Source of the DNA: Naegleria gruberi
Taxonomy: Eukaryota
Length of the DNA stretch: 64,000 nt
Direction: 5' to 3' (one strand)
Assembly: GCA_000004985.1 (NCBI GenBank)
Contig: GG738897.1
Shown: positions 40,791 to 64,000 of the stretch, one piece after another
Layout of the letters: each line of letters begins with the position of its first letter
Position numbering within the stretch: the stretch's first letter is position 1
Program-made: the position numbers and the translations under genes
Notes under the pieces: generated by a model
Databases searched by the model: none
The model's input: the letters and a program-made list of their open reading frames with translations, nothing else
What the model was told of the DNA's origin: nothing

Positions 40791-41217
40791 TGTATATATA
40801 TTGATCAAAATTGTTTTAAAGGTATGTAGTTGATGCAGATGATTGAATCCAACTCCTAACGACTGAGATCTTGAATATCACACAACACTTCGTTTCTTTT
40901 TTTTTCGAACGCACCATTCACCAACAGGCAATTAAATATTTGATTGATGTCCTCTTTTTTTGATGCGAAACTAAAAGGCCTTAAGGCACTCACGGTCTGT
41001 TGGTTTTTGGTGCTGATTACTCAATCATCACCTTAATTGGCACAAATTGTTTGTCATTTCTTAGATTACCATCTTTGAAATTAAGACACTCTCTGAATTT
41101 GTTTCTTTTCATTATACCCTCAATAATTTTTCAATGTAGTAATTAGTTTGGCAAGATTAAACACGAATGTGAAAATGTCTTTTTCTTTTTAACTTTTTTA
41201 TTCGTGAATTTGATATC

Positions 41218-42819: not shown

Positions 42820-43257
42820 ATTTCAATGATAATTATTATTACGGAAAGTTATTTTGTTTTGGCTGCAATGTATTTCACTGTGGTGGAAGTTTTTTAGAGT
42901 GTGATGAGTCATCAAGGAAGATCACGTTATGTTCTTTAAAGTATCCTCCTGTGAATGTTAACAAACTCATTCAAGTGAAGGACAATTTTGGTGGGTGCGT
43001 AGTTTGGAAATTTTGAGAGACAATTTCAAAATTGAGATTCCATGCTTGCTTTTTGATTGCATCCCTTCCCCCTGAGACAAACCAAAAGATATATGTAAAT
43101 CATTGATGAAGAGAATATATGATATTCTGGATTGGAAAATTAGATTATCAGAATGATGGTGATGATAATTAAACATAATAAAAAATGTCTGGAGTGGTAT
43201 GTGTTTATATTTGATGATACTGATGATGTTGATCACAAAATCTCTTAGGAAGACTAC

Positions 43258-44098: not shown

Positions 44099-44120
44099 AA
44101 ATTTATTGAGCTATATAGGT

Positions 44121-44852
44121 TTAATCATTTCTCTTTCTCTTACCTGCCTTGTCAACAGATTCAACATTTTTATCAAAAGATTCCTTAGCTCTTTTTGTAT
44201 TGAATTTAACTTTTCTAGCTTGTTTCTTCTTATATGCATGTCCAGGATTAGGTTGAGTATTTTTCTTAACAGTTGGTTGTGGAGTTGGTGTTTTCTTATC
44301 GTTTGAAGATTGAGGAAGTGTCTTCATCTTATTCTTTAAATGTTGTTGAATAACTTGAAGAGGATTGGATTGAAAAACTGGATGATTTAAAACATTTGTA
44401 AATTGTTCAATTTCATTCTTCATTTTCTTATTCTTCTTTGCAACTTCATTCGATTCCTTTTTAGGTTTTTCTGGTTTTTTCATATCTGATGTTTCTTCAT
44501 TTTGTAAAAGTTTTGACATTGGATCAAAACTGAAAATTCCTTGTTGTTTTTGTTGTTGTTTCTTATTCTTATTCATTGATTCTTTAGTTTCCGTTATTCT
44601 TTGTAATAAACCTTTTCTTTTCTCAAATTTTTCTTGTTTTTTAAGAGTTTTTCTCTTTCTTCTTGATAATCCTCTTTCAAATTCCAAACGATCAGTTGCT
44701 GTAATATTTTCATCAATTGTTGGTTCCGATATTGTTGTTGATGTTTCATCATTAACTGTTGGTTCTTCAGCTTTTTCTACAAGTGTAGAGTGAGAAGCAT
44801 CATTACTATCTTCCACAAAACGTCTTCTCTTATTAATTGGTTGTTTAATCAT
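44121..44852 (-). CDS. Possible Slx9/FAM207-like ribosome-biogenesis protein (basic, 243 aa)
   Basis: Lys-rich protein whose C-proximal VLNHPVFQSNPLQVIQQHLKNKMK resembles the conserved Slx9/C21orf70 motif (HPAFQ.DPL.AIR.HL.N.L). Weak evidence. Confidence 0.4.
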   Translation of the reverse strand: MIKQPINKRRRFVEDSNDASHSTLVEKAEEPTVNDETSTTISEPTIDENITATDRLEFERGLSRRKRKTLKKQEKFEKRKGLLQRITETKESMNKNKKQQQKQQGIFSFDPMSKLLQNEETSDMKKPEKPKKESNEVAKKNKKMKNEIEQFTNVLNHPVFQSNPLQVIQQHLKNKMKTLPQSSNDKKTPTPQPTVKKNTQPNPGHAYKKKQARKVKFNTKRAKESFDKNVESVDKAGKRKRND

Positions 44853-45414
44853 TTTTTTTCAACTTGTTTTTTGAATTAAATATTCAATAATAATTTTATA
44901 ATATTATATTAAATATTATAAAATTATTATTACTAATAATAGTACTGGCTAGTATAATAAAAACTAGAAGAACATGAATAGCTGCTAATAATTATTACAA
45001 TATTTACATTTAGTTTAATAATTTTAAATCTTCATCATCGGGAGCGAAGAGTGATTTTTTCTTCCATTTATCTCTTCTGGTCATATTTTCTGATAATTTT
45101 AAATTATGATCATATTCCCACTTCGGAACATGAGGTATTTTGAATTTTCTTAAAATGTAATAAAATACAATTTCACCAGATCGACTGTATTAACACATTT
45201 TAAATATTATTAAATTAATTATAATAAAACAACATACAATAAAAACCATCCCCAAATTAAAGTATTAAAAATAAATTTTGGAATGTCCAAAGATGATGAG
45301 GACGAATCTCTTACCATAAGAGAAGACATTTTTTACAATTTGAATTTAATCAATTATTAATTTTGAATTGTAAAAATGATTAAGAGAAATTTACTTGAGG
45401 ATGATATTGGAATT

Positions 45415-47069
45415 CTACAGCTGAGTTATTGTAACATTATGTGAAGGTTTAATCCAAGAAGGACTATGATCATAGGTTCCTGGACCAATGTGTGGTGATT
45501 CAAATCTAGATATTGGAGCTGTCTGTACACGTGTATTCTTTGATAAATCAATTCCTTTTGGTTTCTTATCTGTAAATGAGGGTGGTAAATAATTCGGTCC
45601 AACAATTGCTGCTCTATCTCTTGGTAATTTCTCTGTAAATCTACTCGTTGTTGATGTGAACCCAGTTGTTCGTGTGGAAAATGATTTCTTTGACCAATTT
45701 TCATTTGCAATTGCATAAACTCCAACTGGAGGTGTTGTATCTTTCACTAATTTTCTTTCATTGTTATCAGAGCTTCTTGTTGTCCTGGATTGGAATGTAC
45801 TAGATCTTGCATCTGTCTTTCTTACTTGATTTAGTTTTTCAGGTACGTTATATGAACCTGGTGGAGGTGCTTTTGCTTTTTCTATATTTGTAAACCTAGC
45901 AGATGTTGAGCCAAATACACCAAAAGCACCTCTTGGTTTCTTTGTTAAATCATTTGTAAGATAATTACTATCATTGTAGCTTCCAGGTCCTGGAGGAGCA
46001 TCTTTGGATTTGTAATTAAATCTTTCAGTTTTAGCATTGAATGGTCCATGAACTTTTGTACGATCACTACTAACATATTTCTCCTCAAAAACTCTAATAT
46101 ATTCACCAGGTCCAGGTGCACTTGAAAATGTACTTGAAAAATCAAAAGGCCTAGATGTTGTACTTCCAAATGGTTGGTGTTTTGTTTTGTGAGCAAGTTT
46201 TGGCTCCTTAGAATCATAAGCTCCAGGTCCTAAATTTGGTGACCTTATTTTGTCAATTGGAACAAGTGATGATCGTTGAGTCCTAGATCCAAATATCGAA
46301 CCATAACTTCTTGACATATCATTCACTTTGCTGTCATATGCTCCAGGTCCTGGATTTTTTGGAATTTTAAATATGTCTCTTGTAGTTGAACTTGTAAATA
46401 TTCCTTGTGTTTTCCTTGGTGCTGTAATTTCTTCTACAAAATATTGACCTGGTCCAATTGAATCTTGATATGTTCCTTTATATCCTCCATCTGGTGGTCT
46501 TTGTCTTATTAATTCACCACGTGGACCTTCTTCATATCCATGTGATTGTGTATTAGCTGGAATTGATGGGGCAGTTGATAGTTGTTTAGTTGGAGTTGAT
46601 GGATTTCTTGTTTTTGGAGGTGATTTACTAAACTTTTTTTCAAGGAAACTGTCAATATCCGATTTTACTTGATAACTTCCAGGTCCTTAATTCATCAATT
46701 CAACATTAAATTATTATTCATATTAAATAGAAGAAATATAGAAAAAAAATTGGTCATAATAAACCTACCTGGATTTTCCTCAATTGATGTATTTAAATCA
46801 AATCTTGTTGTTGCAGATTTAAAAACAGAGGAACGATCGGTTTTTGAGGTGAAGGCTGTTGGACTTGAATAAGTACCAGGTCCAGGAGTGAGAAACTTTT
46901 CATTGGTTGATGTTGTGTACCTCTTTTCCGTTGAGAAGAATGGTGCTGAGGCATATTTAGGCTGTTTTAAGAATGGTTCATGAGAAATGTAACTACCCGG
47001 TCCTAGTGCATCACTTGTGTTTGTTTTGGAGAGATCAAAGTCTCTTATGGATCGGCTTACCCATGCCAT
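45415..47069 (-). CDS. STPG (sperm-tail PG-rich / SHIPPO repeat) protein, 2 exons: 46769..47069 and 45415..46685 (intron 46686..46768, GTAGGT..TTAAG)
   Basis: At least 14 copies of the G-P-G-x-Y / PGPG repeat spaced about 35-40 aa apart (LGPGSYISHEP, TPGPGTYSSP, GPGSYQVKSD, IGPGQYFVEE, NPGPGAYDSK, PNLGPGAYDSKEP, APGPGEYIRVF, PPGPGSYNDSNY, PPPGSYNVPEK, HIGPGTYDHSP). The second exon extends well upstream of the ORF-track start at 46326. Confidence 0.65.
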
Positions 47070-47418
47070 TAGGTGTTGATGATGATGAAATTATTGTTTA
47101 TTGTACTACTATCTAGATCCTAGTTGTTTATTTTTTTTAAAAAATTTTAATCGGTTTTTAAGGGCGCCAAATTATTTACGGCCGTTGAAAGATTGTGCTG
47201 ATAATTCAGATGTTTTGCTATTACTAATACCATTGATACTCAATTAATTGAGTTTGTGTGTTCGGCATCAACTCCAATCTTTCCTTAGTTTCATTTTGCA
47301 TAAAGAAAGAAAAATTTAATGCCAATAATTTGGGATATTAATGAGAAATTTCTTTTATTTACACTACTTTTTTAATTTAAATTTTGTTAGTCAAATTTTA
47401 TTATTTAACCGTTGTAAA

Positions 47419-48326
47419 TTAAAATACACCAGAGTAATATTCTTCATAGGCTTGCATAATTTCCTCTCTCGTATTCATAACAAATGGTCCTTGTCTTGCA
47501 ACTGGTTCCTTAATAGGTTGACCTGATAAAATTAAGAATTGAACTTGATCAGATGTACTTTCAAATTCAAATTGAGTATTTTCAATTGTTTCATCGAATA
47601 AAACTGCAGATTTTTCAACAACTTGTTGATTTTCAAATATTCCATTTCCTTCAAATAAATAAATTAAACCTTGAAATCCTTTTGGAATTGTTTCTATGAA
47701 TTTTTCATTCTTCTTATTGATTTTAACATGACCTACTAATACAGGAGTTTTTAAAAGCACTGGACTATTTAAATCATGTGAAATACTTTTACCTGCCAGA
47801 ACAGAATAAAGTACATTTTCCGTAATTTGCTTTTTTGGAATTTCACTTGCTCTTAAATCTTGATAATATGGATCAATTAATTTATCTTGAGATTTTAAAT
47901 TAATCCAAATTTGAAACCCATGCATAGGTCCATCTCCAATTGGTGTTTCTTCATGTCTAATTCCTCTACCAGCTATTGTAATTATATTATTGTAAATAAT
48001 TGTAAAGTATTAACAAGTATTAACATACCAGTCATCCATTGAGCATCACCAGAAGATAAATAACCACTTCTTCCCAAACTATCTCTATGCCTAGTTTGAC
48101 CAGTTAATATATAAGAAAGTGTTTCAAATCCCTTATGAGGATGTTCTGGAAATCCATTTTTAGCATTTGGTATTTTAGCTTCATCCAATAATAAGAATGG
48201 ATCATGAACTGAAACTGTTGGTCCACCAATGGTTCTACACACTTTAACACCTGCACCTTCATTCACTTCCTTTCCGAGAATTGTTTTAAGAATTTTTAAT
48301 TTCATAGCGTGTTGTTGTAGACTCAT
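47419..48326 (-). CDS. Pirin (bicupin), 2 exons: 48029..48326 and 47419..47971 (intron 47972..48028, GTATGT..CAATAG)
   Basis: Exon 1 ...HPHKGFETLSYILTGQTRHRDSLGRSGYLSSGDAQWMTG| joins exon 2 |AGRGIRHEETPIGDGPMHGFQIWINLK, giving the canonical pirin GD.QWMTAG.GI.HEE motif and HPH.GFET metal site. Confidence 0.85.
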
Positions 48327-48599
48327 TTTATTTGATTGTTTTATTTGCTTAATTGTTTATTGCTCAAGAGATGAAATATCAAAATAGATGCGTTCGGACA
48401 TGGGAGGTTATGTAATCTTTCATTTATTCCGAATTGAGTGGCTTATTTCTTGCATTTCATCCGAATGTGTATTGGTTTTTTTGTTACAATGTGTTTAATA
48501 ATTGTTGTTCTTCATCATTTAATTGTAAATAATAGTTTAATGTCAATCATTCATCAATCACCACTCATAAATAATAATTTAAATAGTTCAATTTAAAAA

Positions 48600-49619
48600 A
48601 TGTTTAAACTTGCATTTCCAATACGAGTTACCAAATTATACATGGTGATGATGATCATCATTTCCATCTCTATATTATTCATCATTATATTTACACTTTA
48701 CAATAAAAACATACAGAATAATCATGGAAAATCTACACAAGTAGAACATATATTACATGAATCATTATATCATCGGAATGATGGATTTCCATATATTCCT
48801 TATCAGATGGGAAATAATCAACTCATTCCACGAATAATTCATCAAACATTTAAAAGTCAAACTAGAAATGAAATGACAAGTGGCATGCAAAATGCAAGTA
48901 AAAGTTATGAATCCAATTCAAAATTTAAATATATTTATTATAATGATGATGCAGTTTTACAATTTTTAATTGATAATTATGGAGAAAATTCTGATGAATT
49001 TCATGCATTTAATAATTTAATTCCATTTGCATATAAAATTGATTTTTGGAGATTGGCAGTTTTATATAAAATTGGAGGTTATTATTCAGATATTGATTCA
49101 ATTTTATTAAAAGATTTAGATAAGTGGATTGAAAATAATGCAACAATGGTATTACCTGTTGGATATGCTTCATTTGCTTGGTTTGGATTTGAATTTGCAT
49201 TCATTGGAAGTATTCCTCATCATCCATTATTGAGAATTGCTATGGATATGATTATTTATAATGTGAAAAATAAGTATATTCCAGAAGTTCCTAGAAAATT
49301 ACATGAACTTGATTTATTTCTTAAATTTGTTACAATTTCAGGACCTGTTCTTATGGGAAAAGCTTTTAATAGATATATGAATGAACCTGATGAAGCTCCT
49401 CATAATATTGTAAAGGGAAGAAGAGAAGGTTTTCAATTTCTTGGATTTTGTGATAATGGTATAAAATATTTTACAACAATTCCACATCAGAGAGATTATA
49501 GAGAATGTAGAGGTGAAATTGTCATACAATTCAGATATGAGGAATATCGTCAAGAGAGGAGGAAATCTTATAAACCATATTGGGCAAGTTTTAAGGAAGG
49601 TAACATTTTTAAAACTTAG
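48600..49619 (+). CDS. GT32-family glycosyltransferase (Och1 / Sur1-Csg1 / alpha-1,6-mannosyltransferase-like) with N-terminal signal-anchor
   Basis: Signal-anchor MVMMIIISISILFIIIFTLY; IPRIIHQTFKS (GT32 IP.IIHQ.W motif); DXD-type YYSDIDSILLKDL; WRLAVLYKIGGYYSD. Confidence 0.7.
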   Translation: MFKLAFPIRVTKLYMVMMIIISISILFIIIFTLYNKNIQNNHGKSTQVEHILHESLYHRNDGFPYIPYQMGNNQLIPRIIHQTFKSQTRNEMTSGMQNASKSYESNSKFKYIYYNDDAVLQFLIDNYGENSDEFHAFNNLIPFAYKIDFWRLAVLYKIGGYYSDIDSILLKDLDKWIENNATMVLPVGYASFAWFGFEFAFIGSIPHHPLLRIAMDMIIYNVKNKYIPEVPRKLHELDLFLKFVTISGPVLMGKAFNRYMNEPDEAPHNIVKGRREGFQFLGFCDNGIKYFTTIPHQRDYRECRGEIVIQFRYEEYRQERRKSYKPYWASFKEGNIFKT

Positions 49620-49921
49620 AAAAAAGTTGTAATGCACTAACACAGAAACGAGATTAATGTTGTCGATTAATAAACGAGAAGAAATCAAAGATTTTAGGTA
49701 AAATCTAATTGATTGTGTCATTCAGCTATTTAAAAATGATCTATTAGATGAAGAGATGGTCATTGCATGAGGTAGAACATGAAATTGTTGTCTTGATTTT
49801 TAAATTAAGGGCTTCAAAGTTTTTTGATTTGTTCACAAGAGGTCAGATAGAAAGATCGAAACAATAGTGTTATTTATTCGAATTAATTTAGGGTATTTAT
49901 TTATTTTAGACATAGAGAAAA

Positions 49922-52900
49922 TCAAATAAAACTTTGATTTGATTTTGTTGGAGATGAAGAAGGTGAAGAATTAGTTGATAATTGTTTTAAATTTTTCAAT
50001 CTTGGACTATTTGGACTTGAATTTCCATTTAAATTATTATTGGTAAAAGGTGATTCTAATGAAATATTTCCATTTATAGTATTATTATTAACAATTGAAC
50101 AAATATTTGGAATTGGTAAATTAATATTTCCACTATTTAATTTAATTAAAGAATATTGTTGTAATTTTTTAATAATATTTACATAAGAATTATTTAAATC
50201 ACCATTTAAAAGTAATAAAATAATAAAAAATAAATCATCTGAATATTGAATTAAAGGTTTTTTAAATTTAAATGTTAAAAATGTTTTTAATTGATTAACA
50301 TCAATATTTGTATTAATTAAATCCTTATTTGGATTAATTTCCAAAATTAGAAGTTGTAATAAAATAAATCCAATACATTTTATATCTTTTTTAAAATAAT
50401 CATTTTGATTTTGATTTAAAAGTTCATTCATATTTTCATATTGAATTTGTTCAAATACTAAATTTGTATCGTGATGTTTTTTTAACATTGAATTAATTCT
50501 TTGTTTTAAAATTCTATTTTGGTTTTGAATTTCTAAATTTGTAAAATCTTGTAAATATTCAATTCCACTTAAAATTATTTCAAAATCTTTTTCATTAAAA
50601 AGTAAAGTTTCTAAATTTAAATGATTATGTACTTGTTGCCTTTTATGGAGATATTGAATAACTTCAATTAATTGTTTTCCTATTTTGTAAATTTCAATTT
50701 CTTCAAATAATATTGTTTGATTTTGTAAAAATTGTTGAAATGTTGGATAATAGTTTGTAACATAATAATAATTATCATTAAAATAAAATTCTTCTATTTT
50801 TGATTGTAAATATTTATGTTTAAATATATTATATTTAGAAATCTAATTAAATTAAATATAAAAATATAAAATAAATATTAAATTAAATATTAAATTAAAT
50901 TAAAATATATTATAAACATACCATATTTGTAAATTCTGATAAAGTATTAAATTTACTAATAAATGAAATTTCTAATTTTTGTAAATCATTTACTTTATAA
51001 ATAGTATATTGATTTAAATGTTTAATATTTTCAATAATTTTAAATCTTCCATTATAAATAAATTGATCATTAAATTTCTTTAAAAAATTAAAAATTGCCT
51101 TTTTCTTTTTTCTTGAACTTTTTAATTCTGGTAATTTTAATAAAACTTTATCAAATCTATTTAAACATTCCTTTCTAGCATTACTATCATCTAAATGATT
51201 TACAAAAACATTTAAAATATCAACAATTGTATCAATAGTTGGTCTTGTTAATGGATGTAATTGTAACATTGATATTACTAATCGAATTATTAATTCTGGT
51301 ATTCCATTATTTTTTAACTTGTTACAAATAATTGAATGAGTTTCATTTTCATCGGTTTTTATAGCTTCATGCATTAAAAATTTAGTTTCTTGATTTTTTA
51401 CATTTCTAATAATTTGAATTTCCAATGTTAATAATTCATAAAATACACATCCCAATGAAAATATATCTATTATTATTATTATTATTATTATTATTGGTAT
51501 GAATTAGTATGAATTAGTATCATGATGATGATGATGATATTAAGGTGATGATAAATCCAATTAAATGTTATTAAAATATTAAATATATTAAAATATTAAA
51601 CATACCACTATTTTTATCAATTTTAAAATTACCAGTTGAACATTCAGGTGATAAAGTAATTGGTGTTCCTCTAAAACTAATTGTATTTAAATCATTTGTT
51701 GAAGTTAATAAACCAAAATCACCAATTGCAACTTCTTCCATATTTAGAGTTGAAGAATAATTAATTAAAATATTTTCATTTTTTAAATCTCTATAAATTA
51801 AATTATTAAAATGAATTTGTTGTAAACCTAAACAAATTTGTAATAAAATATTTAACCAATTTGGAACTGTTTTTAAATTTCTTAATTTTGAATTTGTAAT
51901 TAATTGTTGTAATGAAGATTTATAAAAAGGCATAACAAGACAACATGAATATTCATCATTTTTCTTTTCAATTGAATAATCTAAATATGGTATTAGATTT
52001 GGATGTTTTAAATTTGAAACTTGTTCAATATTCCATTGTAATTCTTTTAATTTAATTGAATCTAAATTTTGTATTAATTTTTTAATAGCAACATCTCCAA
52101 ATTGAATTGATTTACAATGAAATACAGTTCCTTCTCCTCCACTTGCTATTTTTTTTAAAACAACATATTTACCATTACATAATGTATGTACTGTTATGGA
52201 TTTTAACCAAATTGGTTCAATTTGAATTAAATTTAAAATTAAATATTTTAATAACATTGAAATATGATTTCCTTTAGAAAATTCAGGTAATTTACCAATT
52301 ATTTGTTTACCAAATATCCACATATGTTTTAATGTATAACTAACTAATTGTATATTAAATATTTCCTTCTTTTTCTTTTTTTGATTATTCAATTTTTTTA
52401 AATCTTGTTCAATAAAACTTTTTATAGCTTCCATACTTGTTTGAAAGGCAATTTGTTCATCTTTAGATATTTTAGAATCGGGAAATTTAACCCTATCAGA
52501 TTTTACAAGTAATTTTATAGCTGCCAATATTGAACATGTTAAAATAAAGATTAAATGTGAACATGATTTTTGTGATAATAATGTATAATATCTATTCAAT
52601 TCTATATCTATATTATTACTAGTAGTAGTTGTATTATTTGTATTATTTGTATTATTTGTATTATTTGTATGAGTATTATTAGAATTATTAGAATTATTAG
52701 ATGATGAATTACCCTGATCAATAGTTGCTCTAAATGAAGTTGTAGGTAAATGTAAATTAATTTCCTCAGTGAGTGGATTATGATCATTGGAATTGAAAAA
52801 ATTATTCATACTACTTCTATTTTGATTATTTTGATTATTATTATTGAATGATTTTAAAACTCTACCAAATGTTGCAGGTGTTGGTAATTGTTTTCTATCA

Positions 52901-55366
52901 ACAAAACCAAAAGCATCAATAACTAATTTTTGTAAATCATCAAAATTATTTGGTATTTGAGTAAAGAATGGTTCATTAGAATCTTCATCAATTGAACTTA
53001 AAATTGTATCTTCTAAATATTGAATAAAAGTTTCAATTATAATTGTAATATTTTGTTCAAATGCAATCATTAGAGTATAAATTAATTCATTCAATCTTGT
53101 TGAATTTTGAAAGAAATTTGTTATATTAATATAAACAAACATGAAATCCTTATTTGATTTTAAATTTAAATGATGATTTTGTATAAAATCTTTCATTCTC
53201 TTTTTAATTAAAAATAAATAATCAAAATTTTGACCAAATTTATCAATTTGTAATTTTTGAAATTCAATTTGATTTTGTAAATAAGCATCAGAAGAAGCTT
53301 TAAAATAAAATTCAAAATATTTTAAATCATATTCACCTTGTATCATATCATATAATGAAAGTGATTGAAAATAATCTAATAATTTTTTATAATTAATTGA
53401 TTTTTCTGTAATTGAATGTAATGTAAAATAATTATCTAATAATTGAATTTTACTAAATTTATCCATTGGATATATTGCTGATTTTAATACTGTTATTACT
53501 TTACCATCACATAAAAAATCAAAATGATCAATTTTATAATAATATTGATTAAAATATTTTGTAAAAAATCTACTTTTAATATTTCCATTTATAGTAATTA
53601 TTTTACCTCTATCTGCTATAAATAAATCATTTTCTAATAATTCTGTTACATAATGTGTTAATAATATTTTAATTGGTTTATAATTTGTATATTCTCCACT
53701 ACAATATACACTTCCTGAATTACTTAAAAAGTAACAATTATTTTTAGAACATTCAATATCTATAATTGGTATATCTTGTTCTATAAAATATGTTAATTTT
53801 TCAAATTCTCCATATATATCATTAGTATGATTTAATCCAAATTTACCAAATTGATTTTCACCATATACATATATATTAAATGTTGATGTTAAAATTAAAA
53901 TACTTTTATCATGACATGAAATTTTTTTAATAAAATCTTTTTGAATATTTCTATTATTATTTAAATTATTTATATTATTTAAATTATTATTTAAATTTAT
54001 ATTATTTATATTATTATTTAAATTATTTATATTATTTAAATTAGAATTATTTAAATTAGAATTATTTAAAATTAATTGATTATTAAAATTTGGAAATGGA
54101 ATTGGTTTTGTACAAAAATTTTTAACATCTTTACATTTAATTCCAATTTCATCATCATTACAAATTCCACAAATAAATAAATCAAAATCTTTTGTAATCA
54201 TTAAAACATAATATTTTGTTAATGATGAAATTGAATGAATATTTGATGTAATAAGTGTTGGTGTTTTAATTACTTTTAATCTATTATCTGTATTACTTGT
54301 TATATCTGAATAATAATTAATTCCACATCCATATAAATTACCACTTTCTATATTATTTTAAATATTATTTATTTAATAAATATATTTAATATTATATTTA
54401 GTTCTATATTATTTTAAATATATTGTAAACATACCAGTTAAAAATAAAGTACTTTCATATAAAGTTGTAATTTTCTTAATTTTTTCACCTTTAAAATTAT
54501 TAAATTGTAATCTAGTTGGTATTTGAGTGAGAGGTTTATTATGTCCTAATCCTAATTGATAATTATTATTATTACCTGCTACCCAAATACTTTCATCCTC
54601 TTTTATTAAATATTAAATATTAAATATGATAAATATTTAAAAACATACCCATTACTATAAAAGTACAATAATTTTCAGTATAAATATTTCTAATTCTAGA
54701 AACATCAATTGAATCTCTATATTCATTCTTTACACCTAACATTATTAAATGATTTTCATACACTTCAGAGTCTTGTTGATCATCAAATTGTTGTTGATCA
54801 TCATCACCATATAATATATAATCATCATCATCAATGGCTACTAAATATTGTCCATAATTAGTATTCTCTTTAATAATACCACTATTTAATATTAATGTAC
54901 TTGATCCACTCAATTTATTTAAGTGATTAATTTTATAAAACAAATATTCTACATTAATAGTATTCTTATTGATCATATATTTACTTAGTGATGATAATGC
55001 TGATGCTGATGCTTTTATATTTTGATTAGATGATGATCCTACTCCTACTATAATATTACTACCACTATTACTACCAGGTGATGATACAGGTGAATCTATT
55101 GGTGTAGCAATTGATGATCTAAAGCCTAGTGCATTGTTATAATTACCTGAAAGGCTTGTTGATGATGATGATGGTGATATTGAAGTATCATTTTTATGAA
55201 TACTAAAATATTCTTGATCCGAAGTAAATAATTTTAATAAATTCTGAGAACTTGTAGTACTGCCACTAGATGTTGACAGTCTATTATTATTGTTATTGGT
55301 GAGAATGGATGGTGAAGAATTGGAGGGTGATAGAGAAGGTGAATTTAATGAATGTCTTGAAGACAT
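49922..55366 (-). CDS. Very large (1696 aa) RCC1-repeat + protein kinase + second kinase-like (pseudokinase?) domain protein with poly-Asn tracts, 5 exons: 54649..55366, 54435..54599, 51606..54347, 50922..51466, 49922..50842
   Basis: Introns 54600..54648 (G|GTATGT..AAAAG), 54348..54434 (GTATGT..TATAG), 51467..51605 (GTATGT..AATAG), 50843..50921 (GTATGT..AATTAG). Exon lengths sum to 5091 nt, or 1696 codons plus stop. RCC1 blades (GNNNNYQLGLGHNK, GNLYGCGINYY, YVYGENQFGKFGL). Kinase: GGEGTVFHCK..VAIKKL, HFNNLIYRDLKNENILIN, IGDFGL, GTPITLSPE, DIFSLGCVFYELL. Second degenerate kinase-like lobe (YLHKRQQVHNHLNLETLLFNE). Confidence 0.7.
52612..52700 (-). repeat. Tandem 11-mer (tattatttgta)x4 plus (attattaga)n within kinase exon 3, encoding (NNT)n / (SNN)n
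   Basis: gtattatttgtattatttgtattatttgtattatttgta at 52624-52664. Translates on the minus strand to TNNTNNTNNTNNT within ...SNNSNNSNNTHTNNTNNTNNTNNTTTTSNN. Confidence 0.8.
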
Positions 55367-55555
55367 TTTTTATACTGTCTGACACTTGGCGTTTGATTGA
55401 TCAACATTGTGGATAATTGATGGATAAAAACTCTTGAGCAGCAAAGAAAGAGCGGGAAGGTAGTTAACTTCCTTTTTTGAGTGTTAGCCACAATATTATG
55501 AATCAAATTTTGACAACAAAACAATTTAGTGTTGATTATAAATTTAAATGAATCA
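55367..55555. promoter_or_regulatory. Divergent (bidirectional) promoter spacer between the kinase gene (minus, ATG 55366) and the C5-methyltransferase gene (plus, ATG 55556)
   Basis: 189-nt spacer of moderate GC (gacacttggcgtttgattgatcaacattgtgg...agagcgggaaggtag) lying between two extremely AT-rich head-to-head genes. Confidence 0.5.
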
Positions 55556-58500
55556 ATGAGTGAATCAGAATCATCACAAGAACAAGTTGAAATTCTAGAT
55601 GATTTATCATATATACATAATTATAAAGATGATATATTATTATTAGATGAATTTTATTTATTAAATGATGAAAATGTTTACATTTCATTAACTGATAATA
55701 ATAATAAACAATCTATTTCTATATATGGAATATTATATAATAGTAATAAAATACCAAATAATTTAATTATAGATATGAATAATTTAATTCATGAAGATTT
55801 AAATATAATAATTTCAAAATTAAAATTAGAATCAAAATTTATTGGAAAATTAATTAATTTTAATATTGAATATGATAAATGTAAAAAACCAATAATTTTA
55901 TTTACTATAAATAGAAATGATAAAATATTTGAATGTGAATGTCTAAGATGTGATTCAGATTATTTTAAAATTTTTAAAAAAATTTATAATTTATCTTCAA
56001 TTACATTTTGTTTAATTTTATCTATTTTTAAATTTCCTAAACATGGAATTAATAAAATTATAAATGAATCAAATTCAATTTCAAAAGAATTTAAATTAAA
56101 TATAAATATAAATTTAGAAATAATTAAAAATAATTATAATTTTATTATTGATGAAATTCATAAATTAAATAATGAAAAAATATTTAAAAGTAAATTTATT
56201 AATGAAATTTCAAATATTTTATTTAATAATTCTGAAATGGAAGAATATTCATCAGATTCTTCAGATTCATCTGATTATGATTATAAATTAACACCTAAAA
56301 AGGAAAGAAAACAATTAAAAAGAAAAAATGAAAATTTAAATTCTAAAAAAAGAAAAAAATTTAAAGAATTTAAAAATGAATTTGAAATTGAATTTTTAAA
56401 AGATGAAAATTCTATTAAAATTAATAATGAAATTATTCAAGATGGAGAAGCAATATATTTATTTCCATATTTAGAATTATTTCCAGATTTTTTAAAAAGT
56501 AAAATTGATATAAATTATTATCCTTATTTTATTTTTCAAATTAAATTTAAAAATAATGAAATTTATGGTAAAAGATTATTTAGACATTATGATTTAGCCT
56601 TTTTAAGTTTAAAAAATAATTTAAATATTTTAACTAGAGATGTAAATGAATTATTTTTAGATGAAAATGAAATTTTAATTCCAATACAAAAATACTATAT
56701 AAGGAAATGTTATGTTTTTTATTTAATTGAAACAAATGAATTTGAATCAATTTCTAAAGATATAAGAGAACGAAGAGATATTTTTTATTGTAAACATTTA
56801 ATTAATATTAAAAATAATTTTCAAAATTTTGAATTACTAAATATAGAAAAATTATATTGTAAAAATATGTTTAATTTAATTGATAATTATTCTAAATTTA
56901 TTTTAAATAATTTAATTATTGAAAATGAAAATACAAGAAATTTATTAATTGGATTGGATTTATTTGGTGGATGTGGAGGTTTATCTTTTGGTTTATCTAA
57001 ATCTGGAATTAATATGAAATATGCAATTGATAATAATATTGATGCTATAAATAATTTTCAATTAAATTTTAAAAATTCAAATACTTTTTGTAAAGATTCA
57101 ATTAAATTTTTACAAAAAGTTAAAATTATTAATGAATTGAGAAAATTATGTANNNNNNNNNNNNNNNNNNNNNNNNNNNNNNNNNNNNNNNNNNNNNNNN
57201 NNNNNNNNNNNNNNNNNNNNNNNNNNNNNNNNNNNNNNNNNNNNNNNNNNNNNNNNNNNNNNNNNNNNNNNNNNNNNNNNNNNNNNNNNNNNNNNNNNNN
57301 NNNNNNNNNNNNNNNNNNNNNNNNNNNNNNNNNNNNNNNNNNNNNNNNNNNNNNNNNNNNNNNNNNNNNNNNNNNNNNNNNNNNNNNNNNNNNNNNNNNN
57401 NNNNNNNNNNNNNNNNNNNNNNNNNNNNNNNNNNNNNNNNNNNNNNNNNNNNNNNNNNNNNNNNNNNNNNNNNNNNNNNNNNNNNNNNNNNNNNNNNNNN
57501 NNNNNNNNNNNNNNNNNNNNNNNNNNNNNNNNNNNNNNNNNNNNNNNNNNNNNNNNNNNNNNNNNNNNNNNNNNNNNNNNNNNNNNNNNNNNNNNNNNNN
57601 NNNNNNNNNNNNNNNNNNNNNNNNNNNNNNNNNNNNNNNNNNNNNNNNNNNNNNNNNNNNNNNNNNNNNNNNNNNNNNNNNNNNNNNNNNNNNNNNNNNN
57701 NNNNNNNNNNNNNNNNNNNNNNNNNNNNNNNNNNNNNNNNNNNNNNNNNNNNNNNNNNNNNNNNNNNNNNNNNNNNNNNNNNNNNNNNNNNNNNNNNNNN
57801 NNNNNNNNNNNNNNNNNNNNNNNNNNNNNNNNNNNNNNNNNNNNNNNNNNNNNNNNNNNNNNNNNNNNNNNNNNNNNNNNNNNNNNNNNNNNNNNNNNNN
57901 NNNNNNNNNNNNNNNNNNNNNNNNNNNNNNNNNNNNNNNNNNNNNNNNNNNNNNNNNNNNNNNNNNNNNNNNNNNNNNNNNNNNNNNNNNNNNNNNNNNN
58001 NNNNNNNNNNNNNNNNNNNNNNNNNNNNNNNNNNNNNNNNNNNNNNNNNNNNNNNNNNNNNNNNNNNNNNNNNNNNNNNNNNNNNNNNNNNNNNNNNNNN
58101 NNNNNNNNNNNNNNNNNNNNNNNNNNNNNNNNNNNNNNNNNNNNNNNNNNNNNNNNNNNNNNNNNNNNNNNNNNNNNNNNNNNNNNNNNNNNNNNNNNNN
58201 NNNNNNNNNNNNNNNNNNNNNNNNNNNNNNNNNNNNNNNNNNNNNNNNNNNNNNNNNNNNNNNNNNNNNNNNNNNNNNNNNNNNNNNNNNNNNNNNNNNN
58301 NNNNNNNNNNNNNNNNNNNNNNNNNNNNNNNNNNNNNNNNNNNNNNNNNNNNNNNNNNNNNNNNNNNNNNNNNNNNNNNNNNNNNNNNNNNNNNNNNNNN
58401 NNNNNNNNNNNNNNNNNNNNNNNNNNNNNNNNNNNNNNNNNNNNNNNNNNNNNNNNNNNNNNNNNNNNNNNNNNNNNNNNNNNNNNNNNNNNNNNNNNNN

Positions 58501-59497
58501 NNNNNNNNNNNNNNNNNNNNNNNNNNNNNNNNNNNNNNNNNNNNNNNNNNNNNNNNNNNNNNNNNNNNNNNNNNNNNNNNNNNNNNNNNNNNNNNNNNNN
58601 NNNNNNNNNNNNNNNNNNNNNNNNNNNNNNNNNNNNNNNNNNNNNNNNNNNNNNNNNNNNNNNNNNNNNNNNNNNNNNNNNNNNNNNNNNNNNNNNNNNN
58701 NNNNNNNNNNNNNNNNNNNNNNNNNNNNNNNNNNNNNNNNNNNNNNNNNNNNNNNNNNNNNNNNNNNNNNNNNNNNTATATATTTATTTAATTTTATTTA
58801 ATTTTATTTATATTTATTATATATTTATTTTATATTTAATATTTAATATTTTAAAATAGAATCAAGAATATTAACAGTTAGAGAATGTACTAGAATTCAA
58901 GGATTTCCAGATACATTTATATTTGTAGATGATAAAGTACCATATTGTAAAAGTCAAAAATTAAAAGAGAAATATACTCAAATAGGAAATGCAGTACCAG
59001 TTGTATTTGGATATCAATTTGGAATTGAATTTAGAAAAGCATATTCTAAATTAAAAAATATTAATAATGATTTTAAATCAATATCAAAATTATTTGAAAC
59101 TATTTTTTTAAATGAAACTAGAGAATTTATGGAAAATAATGATTCATCTTTTATAGAATCAACTCAAATTTGGACTGTTAAAGATTTTGAAATACCAGAT
59201 GATTTAAAAGAAGGTTTTTTATTACCTTTTAGACAAGATGAATTGGATTTTCAAAAATCACAAGAATTTTTACAATATTTATCAGAACCAGTAAAAGAAA
59301 ACACTAAAATTACTACTAAAATTACTTCTAAAAAGACAATAACAACAACAACAATTAGGAATAGTAATGTTGCAGATGAGGACATTGTATCATCAACAGA
59401 TGAAGAGGAAGAATTTGGTTATACTTCTGATTTGGAAGAGGAATTAATAACAAGTTCGATGAGTGAAATTGAAGATAGTGATGATAGTACCATTTAA
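55556..59497 (+). CDS. Dnmt1/MET1-like DNA (cytosine-5)-methyltransferase with a 480-aa Lys/Asn/Ile-rich N-terminal region; exon 1 runs from 55556 into assembly gap 57153..58776, last exon 58860..59497
   Basis: Motif I LIGLDLFGGCGGLSFGLSKSGINMKYAIDNNIDAINNFQLNFKNSNTFCKDSIKFL (compare Dnmt1 LDVFSGCGGLSEGFHQAGI...[31 protein letters not shown]). After the gap and an AT-rich 3' intron end (..TTTTAAAATAG at 58859): ESRILTVRECTRIQGFPDTFIFVDDKVPYCKSQKLKEKYTQIGNAVPVVFGYQFGIEF, i.e. motifs IX (RE.AR.QGFPD.F.F) and X (R.QIGNAVPP). Motifs IV (PCQ), VI (ENV), VIII and the target-recognition domain would lie inside the N-run. ORF 59129..59497 is the acidic C-terminal tail of the same exon. Confidence 0.7.
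57153..58776. other. Assembly gap (1624 N) inside the methyltransferase gene
   Basis: Uninterrupted run of n; the flanks are in different exons of one gene. Confidence 0.99.
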
Positions 59498-59875
59498 CAA
59501 TTCATCTATTGAAATGCAATTGTGACATGTGTGTAATGAAGATGGTTTCCACTCTATCAAGAGTGAAGTTTCAGATAATTTCCAACTATTGTAAACATTA
59601 AGGTTGTTCCTAGTGAGTAAAACAATGTTTTTTTCATAAACTTTACAAAATGTTATCGATTTACGATAATTACAAGGAATTACGTTTAAACAATGTGTTT
59701 TCAATTCATTGACCAGCTTGAATACATAATCATTTGTATTGGGTAAACATCTTGGCTAATGTTTTGGGATATTTAAGGAATTTTTTTAAACAGTAAATTT
59801 CTAAACATGGAGAGTTCGCAATTTTTTTTTTTTATCCAAACGCTCATCAAAACCATTTTGTTGTTTTTTTCTAAG

Positions 59876-62526
59876 GATCTATTCTTTGCTCAATGCTGGA
59901 GTTGGTAAGAGTAGATTTATTAATACAATGATTGAGGCTGATATTTTACCTTCTTCAAGTGGAAATAATCATGTTACCAAGAGTTTAATTAATCTTCAAT
60001 ATGGCAAAGATTATTCAATGGAAATTATTCTTTGCACAGATGAAGAGTTGAGAGAAAGATGTCAAGAAACACAATATCAACTCGATCCAAATTATATTAT
60101 ATTCCTAAATTATATAGTGGTATAACTCGTTTCAAAAATGCACAAAGTCTGAAAGTAATATTGAACAAAGACAATTATCCATGACCAAGGATGATATGTA
60201 TCATGTCAAATTATTTCGTATAACTGCTCCAATTCCACTATTGAAAGAACAAAAATTGGAAATTATTGATGTACCAGGTTTGTTCAGTGGTGAATACAGT
60301 TTACTTTTTAATAGATTAGCAATAGAAGCAAGTTTAATTTCAGATACCATTAATATATTTCCAAATAATTTTCGTTCTATTTTCCCAACAGACATATTTG
60401 ATATTGTTGGAAAGGTATTCTCACATCACTCTGCACAACGTTCTCCTAAAATGTTTGTTTATACTTATGGAGGAAAATATACTAGTATGAAGAATGCTTC
60501 AATAGAATTCTTAAATTCTCTTTCAGAAAAAGAGGTCACTGAAAAAGAAATAGAATTCTCTCAACTTTTAGAAGATTATTTTGATTACAAGTTTGATGAT
60601 GTACCTTTTGATAAATCAAATAGAGTCAGTGAAATTATTGGCAAGGTGGAATTTGTAGAACCAAAAGTTCAAGTTTTAGAATTTTTGAAAGATAATTTCA
60701 TGTTATATCCAATTCCAAATTTAGATTCTAAAAATCATTCAAATGAGTTAAAGTTGACTAAAAGATATTTCAAGTTGACTATAATTAGAGATAAACTCAT
60801 TAAAGCTACAAGACTAGTTGAAGAGATTAGTAGAACAGCAATTCTTTGCTTACCTAAACTTATTTCTAGCTCCAAATATCAGTCTAAAAAGCTTGATGAA
60901 TTTGTTGATGAGATAATGACAGAATGTCAAGAAATAATAGAATTCTTACTTGGTAAATTTAAAGACTAATAATTATTCAAAGAAGGAAAAAGCAGGTAAA
61001 ATTGATAAATGGTTGGGAGATAACTTTTTAACAGAAGAGTTAGAATTTAATAGTGAGTCTAAAGCTCACAACAGTATTTTAAAGCATTTAAAACTATTAG
61101 AAGACAATATTAGAACATTAGCAGAAACATATTTTGTTTCAGAATCAAGTGGAAATGATTGTGAAGATTACAAGGGTTTTAAAGCAATGGTTTTACCAAT
61201 GTTTGATGTTGAGAGTGGTGATCATGTCATTCTTGCAACAGAAACCAAAGGTGTATTGAAAGAATTATTAGGAACCTATTTAAATTCTATTAGTAGTAAC
61301 AAATATGAACCTAATTTCAATCAACATTATGCTCACTTGCATTTATTTGAAACAAATTCCAAAAAATCTCTATCTCTACCAACTAAATCTTCCTATTCAG
61401 ATATTGATGAAATGAAACAAGCAAAGTTATTTAATAATAGAGATGACGTTAATAATTGTTTTAGACATGATAAGACTATGGCTAAAATTGTTCATGAATT
61501 AATGTCAACCATTCCACTTCAATCTAATCTTATTACAATTTCTCNNNNNNNNNNNNNNNNNNNNNNNNNNNNNNNNNNNNNNNNNNNNNNNNNNNNNNNN
61601 NNNNNNNNNNNNNNNNNNNNNNNNNNNNNNNNNNNNNNNNNNNNNNNNNNNNNNNNNNNNNNNNNNNNNNNNNNNNNNNNNNNNNNNNNNNNNNNNNNNN
61701 NNNNNNNNNNNNNNNNNNNNNNNNNNNNNNNNNNNNNNNNNNNNNNNNNNNNNNNNNNNNNNNNNNNNNNNNNNNNNNNNNNNNNNNNNNNNNNNNNNNN
61801 NNNNNNNNNNNNNNNNNNNNNNNNNNNNNNNNNNNNNNNNNNNNNNNNNNNNNNNNNNNNNNNNNNNNNNNNNNNNNNNNNNNNNNNNNNNNNNNNNNNN
61901 NNNNNNNNNNNNNNNNNNNNNNNNNAATTTCTCAATATATTCTCAAGATGAACAAATCAATCTATTCCAATGAGATTGCTGAATGTGAAAACATTAAGAA
62001 TATACTCACTTCTCAAGATAAGAATCGTTGGATTTCTGATATTTCACCATTTTTAGAAAATTTAAAAATAGTTGATAATGAAATTAATTTGAGAAAAAAA
62101 CAAACATCAAATTTAGAATCAACTTTCAAATCTTCATTCTTTTCAATGAATAAGGGTAGAGTTAGTTGTTATGATGGACGTGATACTAAATCATATGGAG
62201 ATAAGATTTATTCAAGAGAGGGATTTAATTACATGATTTCCAATGGAGTGAGTGGTGTTGAAACATTTTATCTTCCATCTATGAAGGATATTTTACCAAT
62301 TCCTGACAATTTAATTATGAAGAAATATGATGAATCAAATCAAGATTTCAATTTGAAAACCTTAATGTTGAAATTCAGATGTAACATGTTATCAAATGGA
62401 GTTGGAGGTTTCTTTCATGTTGGATTTAAATTTAAAAAGAAGATACAAAGAAAACGTTGCAGAAGAACTTCAAAGAGAAAGACTAATTCAAGTTCTTCTT
62501 CTACCATCAATAAGAAGAGAAAGTAA
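59876..62526 (+). CDS. Dynamin-superfamily large GTPase, fragmented model: exon pieces 59876..60116, 60190..60952, 60993..61544 (runs into gap 61545..61925), continuing 61926..62526 with a basic C-terminus; 5' exon not found
   Basis: G1 NAGVGKSRFINTMIEADILPSSSGNNHVTKSLINLQYGKD parallels dynamin [36 protein letters not shown]. G3 EIIDVPGLFSG lies about 95 aa downstream after removing the candidate intron 60117..60189, which is the dynamin-type spacing. Frame changes at 60118-60125 and 60950-60969 are resolved by candidate introns 60117..60189 (weak GTGGTA donor) and 60953..60992 (GTAAAT..AAAAAG), or are assembly indels. ORFs 60181..60969, 60950..61951 and 61948..62526 belong to one gene. Confidence 0.45.
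61545..61925. other. Assembly gap (381 N) inside the dynamin-like GTPase gene
   Basis: Uninterrupted run of n. Confidence 0.99.
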
Positions 62527-62821
62527 TCCAATTAATTGTAAATATGTAAACCAAATAATTGTAAATATATTGTGTAAATAAATATTGAGATTATAAAGAA
62601 ATATCTGGATTAAATCATTTACAGCTAACACTTTTAGAACAGTGTTTTTAGTGTTCAGCAAGGGGAAAAAGCGTTTCACCACCAACACATGGTTTATCAA
62701 AATTACAATAATCTCCCCATCTGTATTGAATAAAAGAAACAAGAACAATCATAATAGTAATATGGCAAATGTTACAACAAATGCAAAGTAATAGTAGAGG
62801 AGGTGTTTAACAATAATTTAT

Positions 62822-64000
62822 TTAAATAATTAATAAACCAGATTTAAAAGCATGTACAAATTCATTAAAATCAATAATACCATTCTTATCTGTATCTAAT
62901 TGATCAAAAATAATTCTAGTTTCATTCAATAATTGATTTTCATTTAAATTTTGAAATTTACTCATTGATCTTCTCATATGTAATAATTCATCAAATGTAA
63001 TTGAATTATCCTTATTAATATCAAATGTATTAAATAAATGATATAATACTTGTTCTGTATTATTATTATTATTATTTAAATTATTATTATTATTTAAATT
63101 ATTATTATTATTTATATTATTATTTAAATTATTATTATTATTATTATTTAATTGATTATAAAACATTAAAAAAGCAACAACAAATTCTCTAAAATCAATT
63201 TTACCAGAATGATCAGTATCAAATAAATTGAAATGATTTTCAATAAATAATTTATCATTAATATTAAATAATTTCATAATAATATTAATAAAATCATTTC
63301 TAGATAAAGTACCAGTTTTTTTATCTGAAATATTTTGAAAATATTCTAATAATTTGTTAAATAAATCTGAATCTATATTTGTATTTTGAGTTAATTGTTT
63401 AAAAGTTTTATATTTTAATTCAATTTCTTCATTTTCTAAATCAATTAAAGATTTACTTGATAAAGTTAAAGTTTTATAATAATCTTGATCATTTAAATTT
63501 GAAATATTTTGAATTGATTGTAAAATTTTAGATAATTTTATAATTTTATCTTTTTTTTCTTGATATTGTAATTTAAATGAATTTAATAATGGATTTGTTT
63601 GTTTTTCAATTAAATTAAAAGATTGATTTAAAATTTCTTGAATTAAATTTTCAATTTTTAAAGAAATTTCTTTAAAATTAAATTTATCAAATAAATTTTT
63701 TAAAAATAATAATAAAATATTTAAATATTCTTCTAATGATCTTGTTTGTTGTTTTGAATATTTCCAATTATTTATAGATTCTCTAATTGGTGAATTTACA
63801 ATTCCTTTTAATAAATTTAAAATTTCAATTATATTTGAAATATTAAATTTTTGTAAAATAATTAATTGATAATTTATAATTTCATTTTTAGTAACTCCAC
63901 TAAATAAAGAACTTCCTAATTGAGTAGATGGTAATAATTTACCATTTGTATTATTTAAAATTGATAATAAACAATTAATTGTATAATAAATTAATTCAAA
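62822..64000 (-). CDS. Coiled-coil protein with C-terminal EF-hand calcium-binding domains and poly-Asn insert; 5' end lies beyond the window (partial)
   Basis: The reading frame is open on the minus strand from 62822 to the window edge (...KIENLIQEILNQSFNLIEKQTNPLLNSFKLQYQEKKDKIIKLSKILQ...SDKKTGTLSRNDFINI...). EF-hand loops DTDHSGKIDFREF, DINKDNSITFDEL, DTDKNGIIDFNEF. ORF-track entry 62822..63277 is only the segment after an internal Met. Confidence 0.55.
   Translation of the reverse strand, partial: FELIYYTINCLLSILNNTNGKLLPSTQLGSSLFSGVTKNEIINYQLIILQKFNISNIIEILNLLKGIVNSPIRESINNWKYSKQQTRSLEEYLNILLLFLKNLFDKFNFKEISLKIENLIQEILNQSFNLIEKQTNPLLNSFKLQYQEKKDKIIKLSKILQSIQNISNLNDQDYYKTLTLSSKSLIDLENEEIELKYKTFKQLTQNTNIDSDLFNKLLEYFQNISDKKTGTLSRNDFINIIMKLFNINDKLFIENHFNLFDTDHSGKIDFREFVVAFLMFYNQLNNNNNNNLNNNINNNNNLNNNNNLNNNNNNTEQVLYHLFNTFDINKDNSITFDELLHMRRSMSKFQNLNENQLLNETRIIFDQLDTDKNGIIDFNEFVHAFKSGLLII
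63060..63150 (-). repeat. (AAT/ATT)n microsatellite-like tract encoding poly-Asn in the EF-hand gene; a similar tract at 53930..54080 lies in the kinase gene
   Basis: tattattattattatttaaattattattattatttaaattattattattatttatattattatttaaattattattattattattattt translates to NNNNNNLNNNINNNNNLNNNNNLNNNNNN. Confidence 0.8.

Follow-up and report, generated by a model that had tools for sequence, protein, structure and literature searches.

Lineage-specific AT collapse of three native genes in Naegleria gruberi

Loss of G and C from eukaryotic DNA is known in several forms, with which we compare here a group of three AT-rich genes of Naegleria gruberi: an RCC1-repeat/protein-kinase gene (RCC1-kinase), a C5 DNA methyltransferase gene and an EF-hand gene. 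All three lie toward the right-hand end of a 64,000-nucleotide stretch of contig GG738897.1 (assembly GCA_000004985.1), hereafter the window, and we refer to them together as the island genes. Like vertebrate CpG islands and the bimodal CpG observed/expected ratios of invertebrates, the locus combines loss of C and G from gene bodies with promoter-containing spacers that keep their composition and, as in methylation-driven decay, the effect goes gene by gene in a host that has a cytosine methylation system (PMC12344493). Unlike CpG decay, however, all cytosines are depleted here and not CpG alone, which would need methylation in all contexts; this has been reported for N. gruberi, where 5-methylcytosine (5mC) is equal in all four dinucleotide contexts and 447 regions are hypermethylated (PMC12344493). 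A further difference is that invertebrates methylate broadly expressed genes, whereas the methylated genes of N. gruberi are rare (112, about 0.6%) and mostly silent, their methylation overlapping with histone H3 trimethylated at lysine 9 and lysine 27 (H3K9me3 and H3K27me3; PMC12344493).

The remaining comparisons are with systems of other kinds. Sharp blocks of 13-18% GC in a homogeneous genome recall the AT isochores produced by repeat-induced point mutation (RIP) in the fungi Leptosphaeria maculans and Neurospora, and a link with the DNMT family is possible; yet the locus has no CpA-to-TpA signature and no repeats, its genes are intact, and spared spacers interrupt the AT-rich sequence, which in RIP blocks is contiguous. 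A/T-ending codons, proteins rich in Asn, Lys and Ile, and poly-Asn runs are shared with the expression-linked codon bias of the AT-rich protists Dictyostelium and Plasmodium, where weakly expressed genes drift this way, but in those genomes non-coding DNA is AT-richer than coding DNA, while here the genes are AT-richer than the spacers and the effect is seen in three neighbours and in one lineage. Finally, as in the patterns of GC-biased gene conversion (isochores, the 5'-3' gradients of grasses in GC at third codon positions (GC3), yeast promoter hotspots), silent sites shift along with introns, GC3 is raised beside some spacers, and there is a gradient toward the island; the gene of ordinary composition inside the island and the step-like edges are unlike these patterns. 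What remains, among known compositional-decay phenomena, is a lineage-specific AT collapse of three native, functional genes, and we found no description of a collapse of this kind in the literature searched.

Composition of the island genes, their introns and their spacers

The anomaly in composition is genuine, and it is both strong and well supported statistically. Whereas positions 1-49870 of the window have 31.9% GC (N excluded from all GC values), three AT-rich blocks at 49871-54985, 55611-58874 and 62806-64000 have 13-18%. Likelihood segmentation of 40-64 kb gave GC of 0.184, 0.134 and 0.140 for these three blocks, with 0.301 to their left (40001-49870) and 0.314 (54986-55610) and 0.275 (58875-62805) for the segments that separate them. 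The RCC1-kinase gene (49922-55366, minus strand) has a single open frame of 1696 amino acids with Pfam Pkinase and RCC1 matches, and is modelled in five exons (55366-54649, 54599-54435, 54347-51606, 51466-50922 and 50842-49922); its GC content is 19.3%, with GC at first, second and third codon positions (GC1/GC2/GC3) of 0.28/0.26/0.057. The methyltransferase gene (55556-59497, plus strand), which has a long N-terminal extension and PF00145 matches on both sides of an N gap at 57153-58776, has a GC content of 14.5% in its N-terminal part and GC1/GC2/GC3 of 0.27/0.22/0.036. The third gene (62822-64000, minus strand) is represented by its 3' part, 392 codons with Pfam EF-hand pairs, whose frame stays open as far as the last position of the window and continues past it; here GC is 14.1% and GC1/GC2/GC3 0.22/0.17/0.026. 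By comparison, 21 open reading frames (ORFs) at 0-39.5 kb have GC1/GC2/GC3 of 0.41/0.32/0.262, so that third positions stand at 0.03-0.06 in the island genes versus 0.262 in these ORFs (0.26 in a set of 26 upstream ORFs), and GC at 4-fold sites at 0-5% versus 19% in left-hand genes. A rank test per gene, with the three island genes on one side and 35 ORF values on the other, gave p = 0.002.

Introns are shifted along with exons. The four introns of the RCC1-kinase gene, all with GTATGTTT at the 5' end and AG at the 3' end, are AT-rich throughout: intron 1 (54600-54648; 49 nt, phase 1) has a GC of 0.08, intron 2 (54348-54434; 87 nt) 0.07, intron 3 (51467-51605; 139 nt, phase 1, within the kinase domain) 0.16, and intron 4 (50843-50921; 79 nt, phase 0) 0.04. 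In the methyltransferase gene, the 3' part of an intron is visible downstream of the N gap (58777-58846, plus strand) and consists of A and T only. With splice signals trimmed, intron cores of the island have 7.2% GC, compared with 18.7% in six other introns (Fisher p = 3e-5). The initial annotation had reported the 1696-residue RCC1-kinase product with introns of 49, 79, 87 and 139 nt, all of which we reproduced exactly; it had also set the island introns against left-hand introns of about 30% GC, and although the latter in fact range over 16-31%, the contrast itself stands.

At the gene ends the transitions are steps over tens of nucleotides and not slopes over kilobases. The kinase-side edge at 49871 lies 51 nt beyond the RCC1-kinase stop codon, just 3' of which there are polyadenylation-like AATAAA motifs; the EF-hand-side edge, at 62806, is 16 nt past that gene's stop codon, and the edge at 55611 falls 55 nt inside the methyltransferase ATG. 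In the 5' 380 nt of the kinase coding sequence and in the 3' tail of the methyltransferase coding sequence total GC is near normal, mainly because these ends contain tracts rich in Ser, Thr, Pro, Asp and Glu; as GC3 is still only 0.02-0.18 there, low GC3 covers essentially the entire coding sequence. GC3 is nevertheless raised near some spacers, to 0.18 in the first 60 codons of the kinase gene and 0.17 in the methyltransferase tail, and the adjoining GT32 gene has 0.28 and 0.23 at its two ends versus 0.07-0.13 inside.

The spacers, by contrast, are ordinary. The convergent 3'-3' spacer between the GT32 and RCC1-kinase genes (49620-49921) has a GC of 0.275, and the divergent 5'-5' spacer between the RCC1-kinase and methyltransferase genes (55367-55555), the core of the GC-normal block 54986-55610, has 0.307; values are 0.284 for the spacer between the methyltransferase gene and a dynamin-like gene (59498-59885) and 0.268 for the convergent spacer between the latter and the EF-hand gene (62527-62821). 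ORF-free segments across the window have 28.6 +/- 3.6% GC, and the four spacers within or next to the island (27-31%) do not differ from these. Gene bodies at 13-19% GC with GC3 of 0.03-0.06, set against spacers at 27-31%, are the compositional feature of methylation-type decay. It had been noticed at the outset that these genes are far AT-richer than their own spacers, and this is borne out; the accompanying figure of 30-36% GC for the spacers was too high, while their likeness to spacers elsewhere in the window holds. Inspection of the divergent spacer by eye across four species revealed no conserved promoter motif except an A-rich context before the ATG.

Orthologues, gene order and native origin

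We are highly confident that the island genes are native to N. gruberi, and that the shift is specific to its lineage and confined to individual gene bodies. Syntenic relatives were found at a locus of Naegleria lovaniensis (L001), at one of Willaertia magna (L002) and on environmental contigs (L003, L004 and L005). In N. lovaniensis, the methyltransferase gene and the RCC1 and kinase genes are divergent and are followed by F-box, STPG, SLX9, RRM and RGS genes, the order from STPG to RGS being that of the window read backwards from 55.5 kb. W. magna likewise has an RCC1-kinase gene and then an STPG gene in synteny. Contig L003 (7.3 kb, 39% GC) carries a methyltransferase gene, a dynamin-family gene and an EF-hand orthologue (51% identity, GC3 0.43) in the N. 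gruberi order and orientation, and the divergent RCC1-kinase/methyltransferase pair is present on L004 and L005 (33% GC), which we assign to one organism because their overlap is virtually identical. The RCC1-kinase gene corresponds to C9374_010233 and an adjoining kinase gene in N. lovaniensis and to ABK040_002523, a fused protein of 1551 amino acids, in W. magna; the N. lovaniensis orthologue of the methyltransferase, C9374_010234, is 42% identical. A profile search with the methyltransferase N-terminus recovered the N. lovaniensis and W. magna orthologues, plus fragments on environmental contigs.

Shared gene structure and sequence divergence agree with this synteny. Intron 1 of the RCC1-kinase gene has the same position and phase in N. 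gruberi, N. lovaniensis and W. magna, the position of intron 2 is common to N. lovaniensis and that of intron 4 to W. magna. In a three-taxon alignment, unique residues numbered 153 in W. magna, 65 in N. gruberi and 83 in N. lovaniensis, which is the species topology. Horizontal transfer, which the initial annotation had raised, would make these genes recent imports whose donor was an AT-rich eukaryote or giant virus; it has in its favour the composition itself and the Dictyostelium-like poly-Asn tracts of the RCC1-kinase protein, and nothing else. We consider it highly improbable and have rejected a foreign gene island: the orthologues in four relatives are syntenic and of ordinary composition, intron positions and phases are shared, the residue counts agree with the species tree, the spacers have a composition typical of N. 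gruberi, and IMG/VR scans with the dynamin-like and EF-hand proteins returned no close relatives. A metagenome scan with the RCC1-kinase alignment found distant RCC1 proteins only, at 22-35% identity. The suggestion that the genes belong to an expanding family found no support. Repeat and tandem-repeat searches of 44-64 kb on both strands gave AT low-complexity and poly-Asn-type matches only and no transposable elements, and the methyltransferase profile search revealed only two paralogue lineages, both common to N. lovaniensis.

A chimeric scaffold or contaminating AT-rich contigs could be invoked because there are two N gaps in the window (57153-58776 and 61545-61925), both in this region, and because cloning and assembly of AT-rich sequence are difficult. 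Nevertheless, the five boundaries in composition (49871, 54985, 55611, 58875 and 62806) all fall in uninterrupted sequence and none at an N gap; one gap sits inside a uniformly AT-rich gene and the other inside a uniformly GC-normal one. Moreover, the boundary at 54985 lies inside one exon that is colinear with its N. lovaniensis orthologue in the alignment, and gene order is as in the relatives. With boundaries away from the gaps and an exon that is colinear across one boundary, contamination and chimerism can be set aside as very improbable, in agreement with the earlier view that simple contamination or mis-assembly was unlikely. Four single-exon ORFs of the window are identical to N. gruberi NEG-M proteins (EFC39753, EFC39814, EFC39747 and EFC39748), on a scaffold of 326,913 bp.

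Branch, direction and possible sources of the AT pressure

Comparison of aligned codons places the collapse on the N. gruberi branch. At the same codons of the island genes GC3 is 0.00-0.11 in N. gruberi, 0.19-0.32 in N. lovaniensis and 0.11-0.19 in W. magna, and among the environmental contigs 0.37-0.47 in L003 and 0.19-0.53 in L004/L005. Compared with their own neighbours, the orthologues of the relatives are unremarkable, with pooled GC3 of 0.244 versus 0.284 in N. lovaniensis and 0.142 versus 0.141 in W. magna. In the flanks N. gruberi has a higher GC3 than W. magna (0.242 versus 0.141), and in the island a lower one (0.053 versus 0.142); since N. gruberi is AT-richer than W. magna in the island only, the collapse is specific to its branch.

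The change is also directional. At residues identical with N. lovaniensis, third positions differ by 164 strong-to-weak and 12 weak-to-strong changes, versus 101 and 51 in flanking genes; silent sites are saturated between the two species. Replacements into Phe, Tyr, Met, Ile, Asn and Lys (FYMINK) number 263 versus 97 out of them, while the flanks are symmetric (FYMINK content 0.46 versus 0.35). Protein identity in alignable blocks is nevertheless 55% in the island versus 56% in the flanks, and a relative-rate test with 65 changes unique to N. gruberi and 83 to N. lovaniensis (chi-square 2.2) gave no sign of acceleration. A hypermutation burst that overwhelmed selection is ruled out, as the N. 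gruberi protein has not accelerated. The island genes are functional: purifying selection has preserved their frames, the catalytic motifs seen in the sequence and the pace of protein change, while AT pressure has recoded them and has shifted weakly constrained residues to FYMINK.

One known source of extreme, sharply bounded AT enrichment is RIP-like C-to-T hypermutation of duplicated sequence, as in fungi, and the presence of a DNMT-family gene at the locus would fit such a process. Its dinucleotide signature is missing. The ratio (CpA+TpG)/(ApC+GpT) is 1.5-2.5, compared with values below about 1.03 under RIP, and TpA/ApT is 0.76-0.87 in the AT-rich blocks, compared with values above about 0.89. 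There are no premature stops and, as described above, no protein acceleration, and we regard RIP as a very improbable cause.

Instead, cytosine loss may be tied to chromatin state by way of all-context 5mC in gene bodies with weak expression, a reading to which we lean tentatively and at rather less than even confidence. The mutational input would then be specific to individual genes and their chromatin state and not to the whole region: the three gene bodies would be present or past targets of all-context 5mC, and its deamination would deplete both strands of C whatever the context; with low expression, the codon-usage selection that holds other genes at a GC3 of ~0.26 would be lost; and spacers, being nucleosome-free, unmethylated and functionally constrained, would escape, much as CpG islands do in vertebrates but here for every cytosine. 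Deamination of 5mC together with low expression would explain the shift of exons and introns with spared spacers, its gene-by-gene occurrence in all contexts, the rise in GC3 at some gene edges, and its restriction to one lineage. A gene-body-specific mutational process had been proposed in the initial annotation, and the part of that proposal that concerns location is upheld, in that exons and introns but not spacers are affected; a spectrum specific to C-to-T changes was not demonstrable.

Several observations count against a role for methylation. Another study places H3K9me3 and H3K27me3 of N. gruberi on transposable elements and not on repressed genes, although its V1.0 annotation, our comparison suggests, is without these genes. 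The affected methyltransferase would itself be expected to be expressed. On the coding strand, the 4-fold sites of the island genes have gained mostly A (0.60, versus 0.35 for T), where symmetric deamination predicts T and A in balance; as the introns are without such a skew, a codon preference is superimposed at 4-fold sites. CpG observed/expected falls from 0.35 to 0.08 in the island, a change confounded by codon structure, and the gradient in GC3 over 39.6-49.6 kb hints at some regional component.

The same silent-site data can be read with no special mutator at all. If mutation in N. gruberi is AT-biased with a neutral equilibrium of about 3-7% GC, three nearly silent genes might have relaxed to that equilibrium, with codon-usage selection and/or biased gene conversion holding ordinary genes at a GC3 of ~0.26 and densely packed promoter, UTR and terminator signals holding spacers at 28%; we view this, the main rival, as possible, if on balance unlikely. 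Consistent with relaxation, 4-fold sites of ordinary genes (19% GC) are more AT-rich than spacers (28.6%), and spacers are therefore not a neutral baseline. Two-fold codons ending in C and in G fall from 0.22 and 0.32 to 0.02-0.06 in the island genes, as expected on loss of preferred codons; the odds shift is larger at 4-fold sites (about 0.13) than in introns (0.34), so the effect is partly codon-specific; and there are intermediate genes with GC3 of 0.11-0.20. However, the introns also fell, from 18.7% to 7.2% GC with introns of the same size included, and loss of codon selection alone is therefore not sufficient. None of the ~35 other ORFs in the window, some of them surely weakly expressed, falls below a GC3 of 0.11, the three extreme genes are close neighbours with only the dynamin-like gene between them, and, with orthologues that are not outliers in four relatives, expression would have to have collapsed for three neighbours on one branch.

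The gradient and the raised edges bear on another alternative, in which the region has become recombination-cold in N. gruberi (for example near a centromere, within an inversion, or in a mating-type-like or heterochromatic domain) and has lost GC-biased gene conversion and efficient selection. GC3 falls gradually from ~36 kb, from 0.26 to 0.11-0.20 and then to 0.03-0.06; SLX9 and STPG exon 2 already lie below their N. lovaniensis orthologues, by 0.12-0.18, and the higher GC3 near some spacers fits conversion hotspots at promoters. Yet the dynamin-like gene keeps a GC3 of 0.196 between collapsed genes (0.036 and 0.026) that lie 300-400 nt away on either side, spacers within the island do not differ from others, and the edges are steps. 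In a recombination-cold domain all weakly constrained sites of a contiguous region would shift together; here they did not, and a cold region seems an unlikely explanation.

Returning to methylation, the stronger proposition that all-context 5mC has acted as a mutator confined to gene bodies, leaving almost cytosine-free yet functional genes, a DNA methyltransferase gene among them, is one that we hold to be rather doubtful, though its consequences are of interest. If true, it would constitute a non-CpG counterpart of the logic of CpG islands and CpG depletion in animals, and would define, in a free-living protist, a small class of AT-collapsed genes that has largely escaped annotation. In Neurospora, AT-rich DNA attracts heterochromatin; should it do so here, the process might be self-reinforcing. 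Any link with methylation or chromatin would also reveal what non-CpG methylation costs a deep-branching eukaryote in mutations over the long term, and would show essential genes surviving that cost, with frames kept open at ~10% stop probability per random codon and with FYMINK recoding of the proteins.

Gene models, annotation and flanking genes

The RCC1-kinase product contains the VAIK, YRD and DFG kinase motifs, and one of its exons has an open frame of 876 codons, which at island composition would arise by chance with a probability of about 1e-42. No ORF for it from N. gruberi was found in a collection of 15 billion proteins. Public annotation of the methyltransferase gene covers its last 122 codons only (59129-59497), as the 'predicted protein' EFC39756. 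The public gene set of N. gruberi thus appears to lack the RCC1-kinase gene and most of the methyltransferase gene, and annotation may miss AT-collapsed genes systematically. Surveys of DNMTs, the kinome or chromatin state that rest on this annotation may then be incomplete; composition-based screens for horizontal transfer, on the other hand, would wrongly flag the island.

Both genes are also split in the N. lovaniensis annotation, RCC1-kinase into genes of 1039 and 793 amino acids (L001 10001-16795) and the methyltransferase into genes of 728 and 435 amino acids (L001 5899-9927). As one uninterrupted 876-codon exon of N. gruberi spans the middle region of RCC1 and the kinase N-lobe, and as W. 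magna annotates one protein, we consider the splits in N. lovaniensis to be probably annotation errors. A 122-nt 'intron' of N. lovaniensis (L001 11991-12112; GTAAAT...AAG, GC 0.37) looks doubtful too.

The methyltransferase had been called Dnmt1-like. A C5-methyltransferase domain is present: PF00145 matches place motif I at residues 467-517 of the 532-residue N-terminal part and motifs IX-X in the C-terminal exon, while motifs IV-VIII, the catalytic core, fall in the 1624-nt N gap and are present in the N. lovaniensis orthologue (PF00145 positions 122-183). DNMT surveys of N. gruberi that work from sequence could, owing to the gap, overlook this paralogue or find it truncated. No Pfam match to BAH or RFTS domains was obtained at E <= 0.01 in the N-terminal regions of the N. 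gruberi or N. lovaniensis proteins, and matches to PDB chains were weak (best E about 1e-7 to 1e-5), with DNMT1/chromomethylase chains and bacterial M.HaeIII matched alike. From these sequence comparisons the DNMT1 label is no more than plausible. The orthologues of DNMT1 in N. gruberi have been counted as two (PMC12344493), neither of which is tied here to the methyltransferase of the window. A homology search with the two pieces of the protein concatenated came back empty, in contrast to the later index-free profile search with the N-terminal part; we suspect that low-complexity candidates swamped the word index of the former. In N. lovaniensis, a gene for a SNF2-family helicase of 1710 amino acids (PF00176 and Helicase_C; L001 755-5887) is convergent with the methyltransferase gene and occupies the slot that dynamin-family and EF-hand genes fill in N. 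gruberi and on L003; this adjacency of a DNMT and a SNF2 remodeller may be functionally meaningful or a result of rearrangement.

The dynamin-like gene between the collapsed genes (59886-62526, start approximate, plus strand; N gap at 61545-61925) encodes a divergent dynamin-family GTPase with a weak Pfam Dynamin_N match and recognisable G1 (NAGVGKS) and G3 (DVPG) motifs. With a GC of 0.281 and GC1/GC2/GC3 of 0.35/0.30/0.196 it is near ordinary and slightly low, in keeping with its initial description as intermediate. Comparison by tblastn with the canonical dynamin in the same slot of L003 (4523-6228) gave no similarity, which points either to extreme divergence or to replacement by a non-orthologue. 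Recent arrival as the cause of its normal GC is weakened by the dynamin-family gene that L003 has in this slot.

To the left of the island, a transition zone (39591-49619) with RGS-like, RRM, SLX9, STPG, pirin and GT32 genes has GC3 of 0.11-0.20, with STPG exon 1 (0.27) as an exception, so that the boundary is partly a gradient, as had been foreseen. GC3 of SLX9 and STPG exon 2 is 0.16 and 0.13, versus 0.28 and 0.31 in N. lovaniensis. Between STPG and RCC1-kinase, N. gruberi carries the pirin and GT32 genes (47419-49619) and N. lovaniensis an F-box gene (L001 17240-18898), while in W. magna no gene intervenes; this amounts to a minor local rearrangement where the island begins on the left. Rfam and tRNA scans covering all of the window were empty.

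Farther left, CpG and TpA are both under-represented over positions 1-39500 (observed/expected 0.35 and 0.62), and the deficit of CpG may stem from hypermutability of CpG over a long period in N. gruberi, though present methylation is without CpG preference. The gene at 20415-21641 (minus strand) is 49% identical to a W. magna gene of Spo11/TopoVIA type (TP6A_N), which in that species lies directly upstream of RCC1-kinase; the W. magna locus also has the window's lipoate-protein ligase and RhoGEF genes (31-36.5 kb), and synteny between the two is broad but rearranged. Within the W. magna RhoGEF gene, a stretch of 1 kb (L002 18001-19000) has 16-19% GC against a background of 26%, a dip that may be a low-complexity tract alone or a milder form of the same phenomenon.

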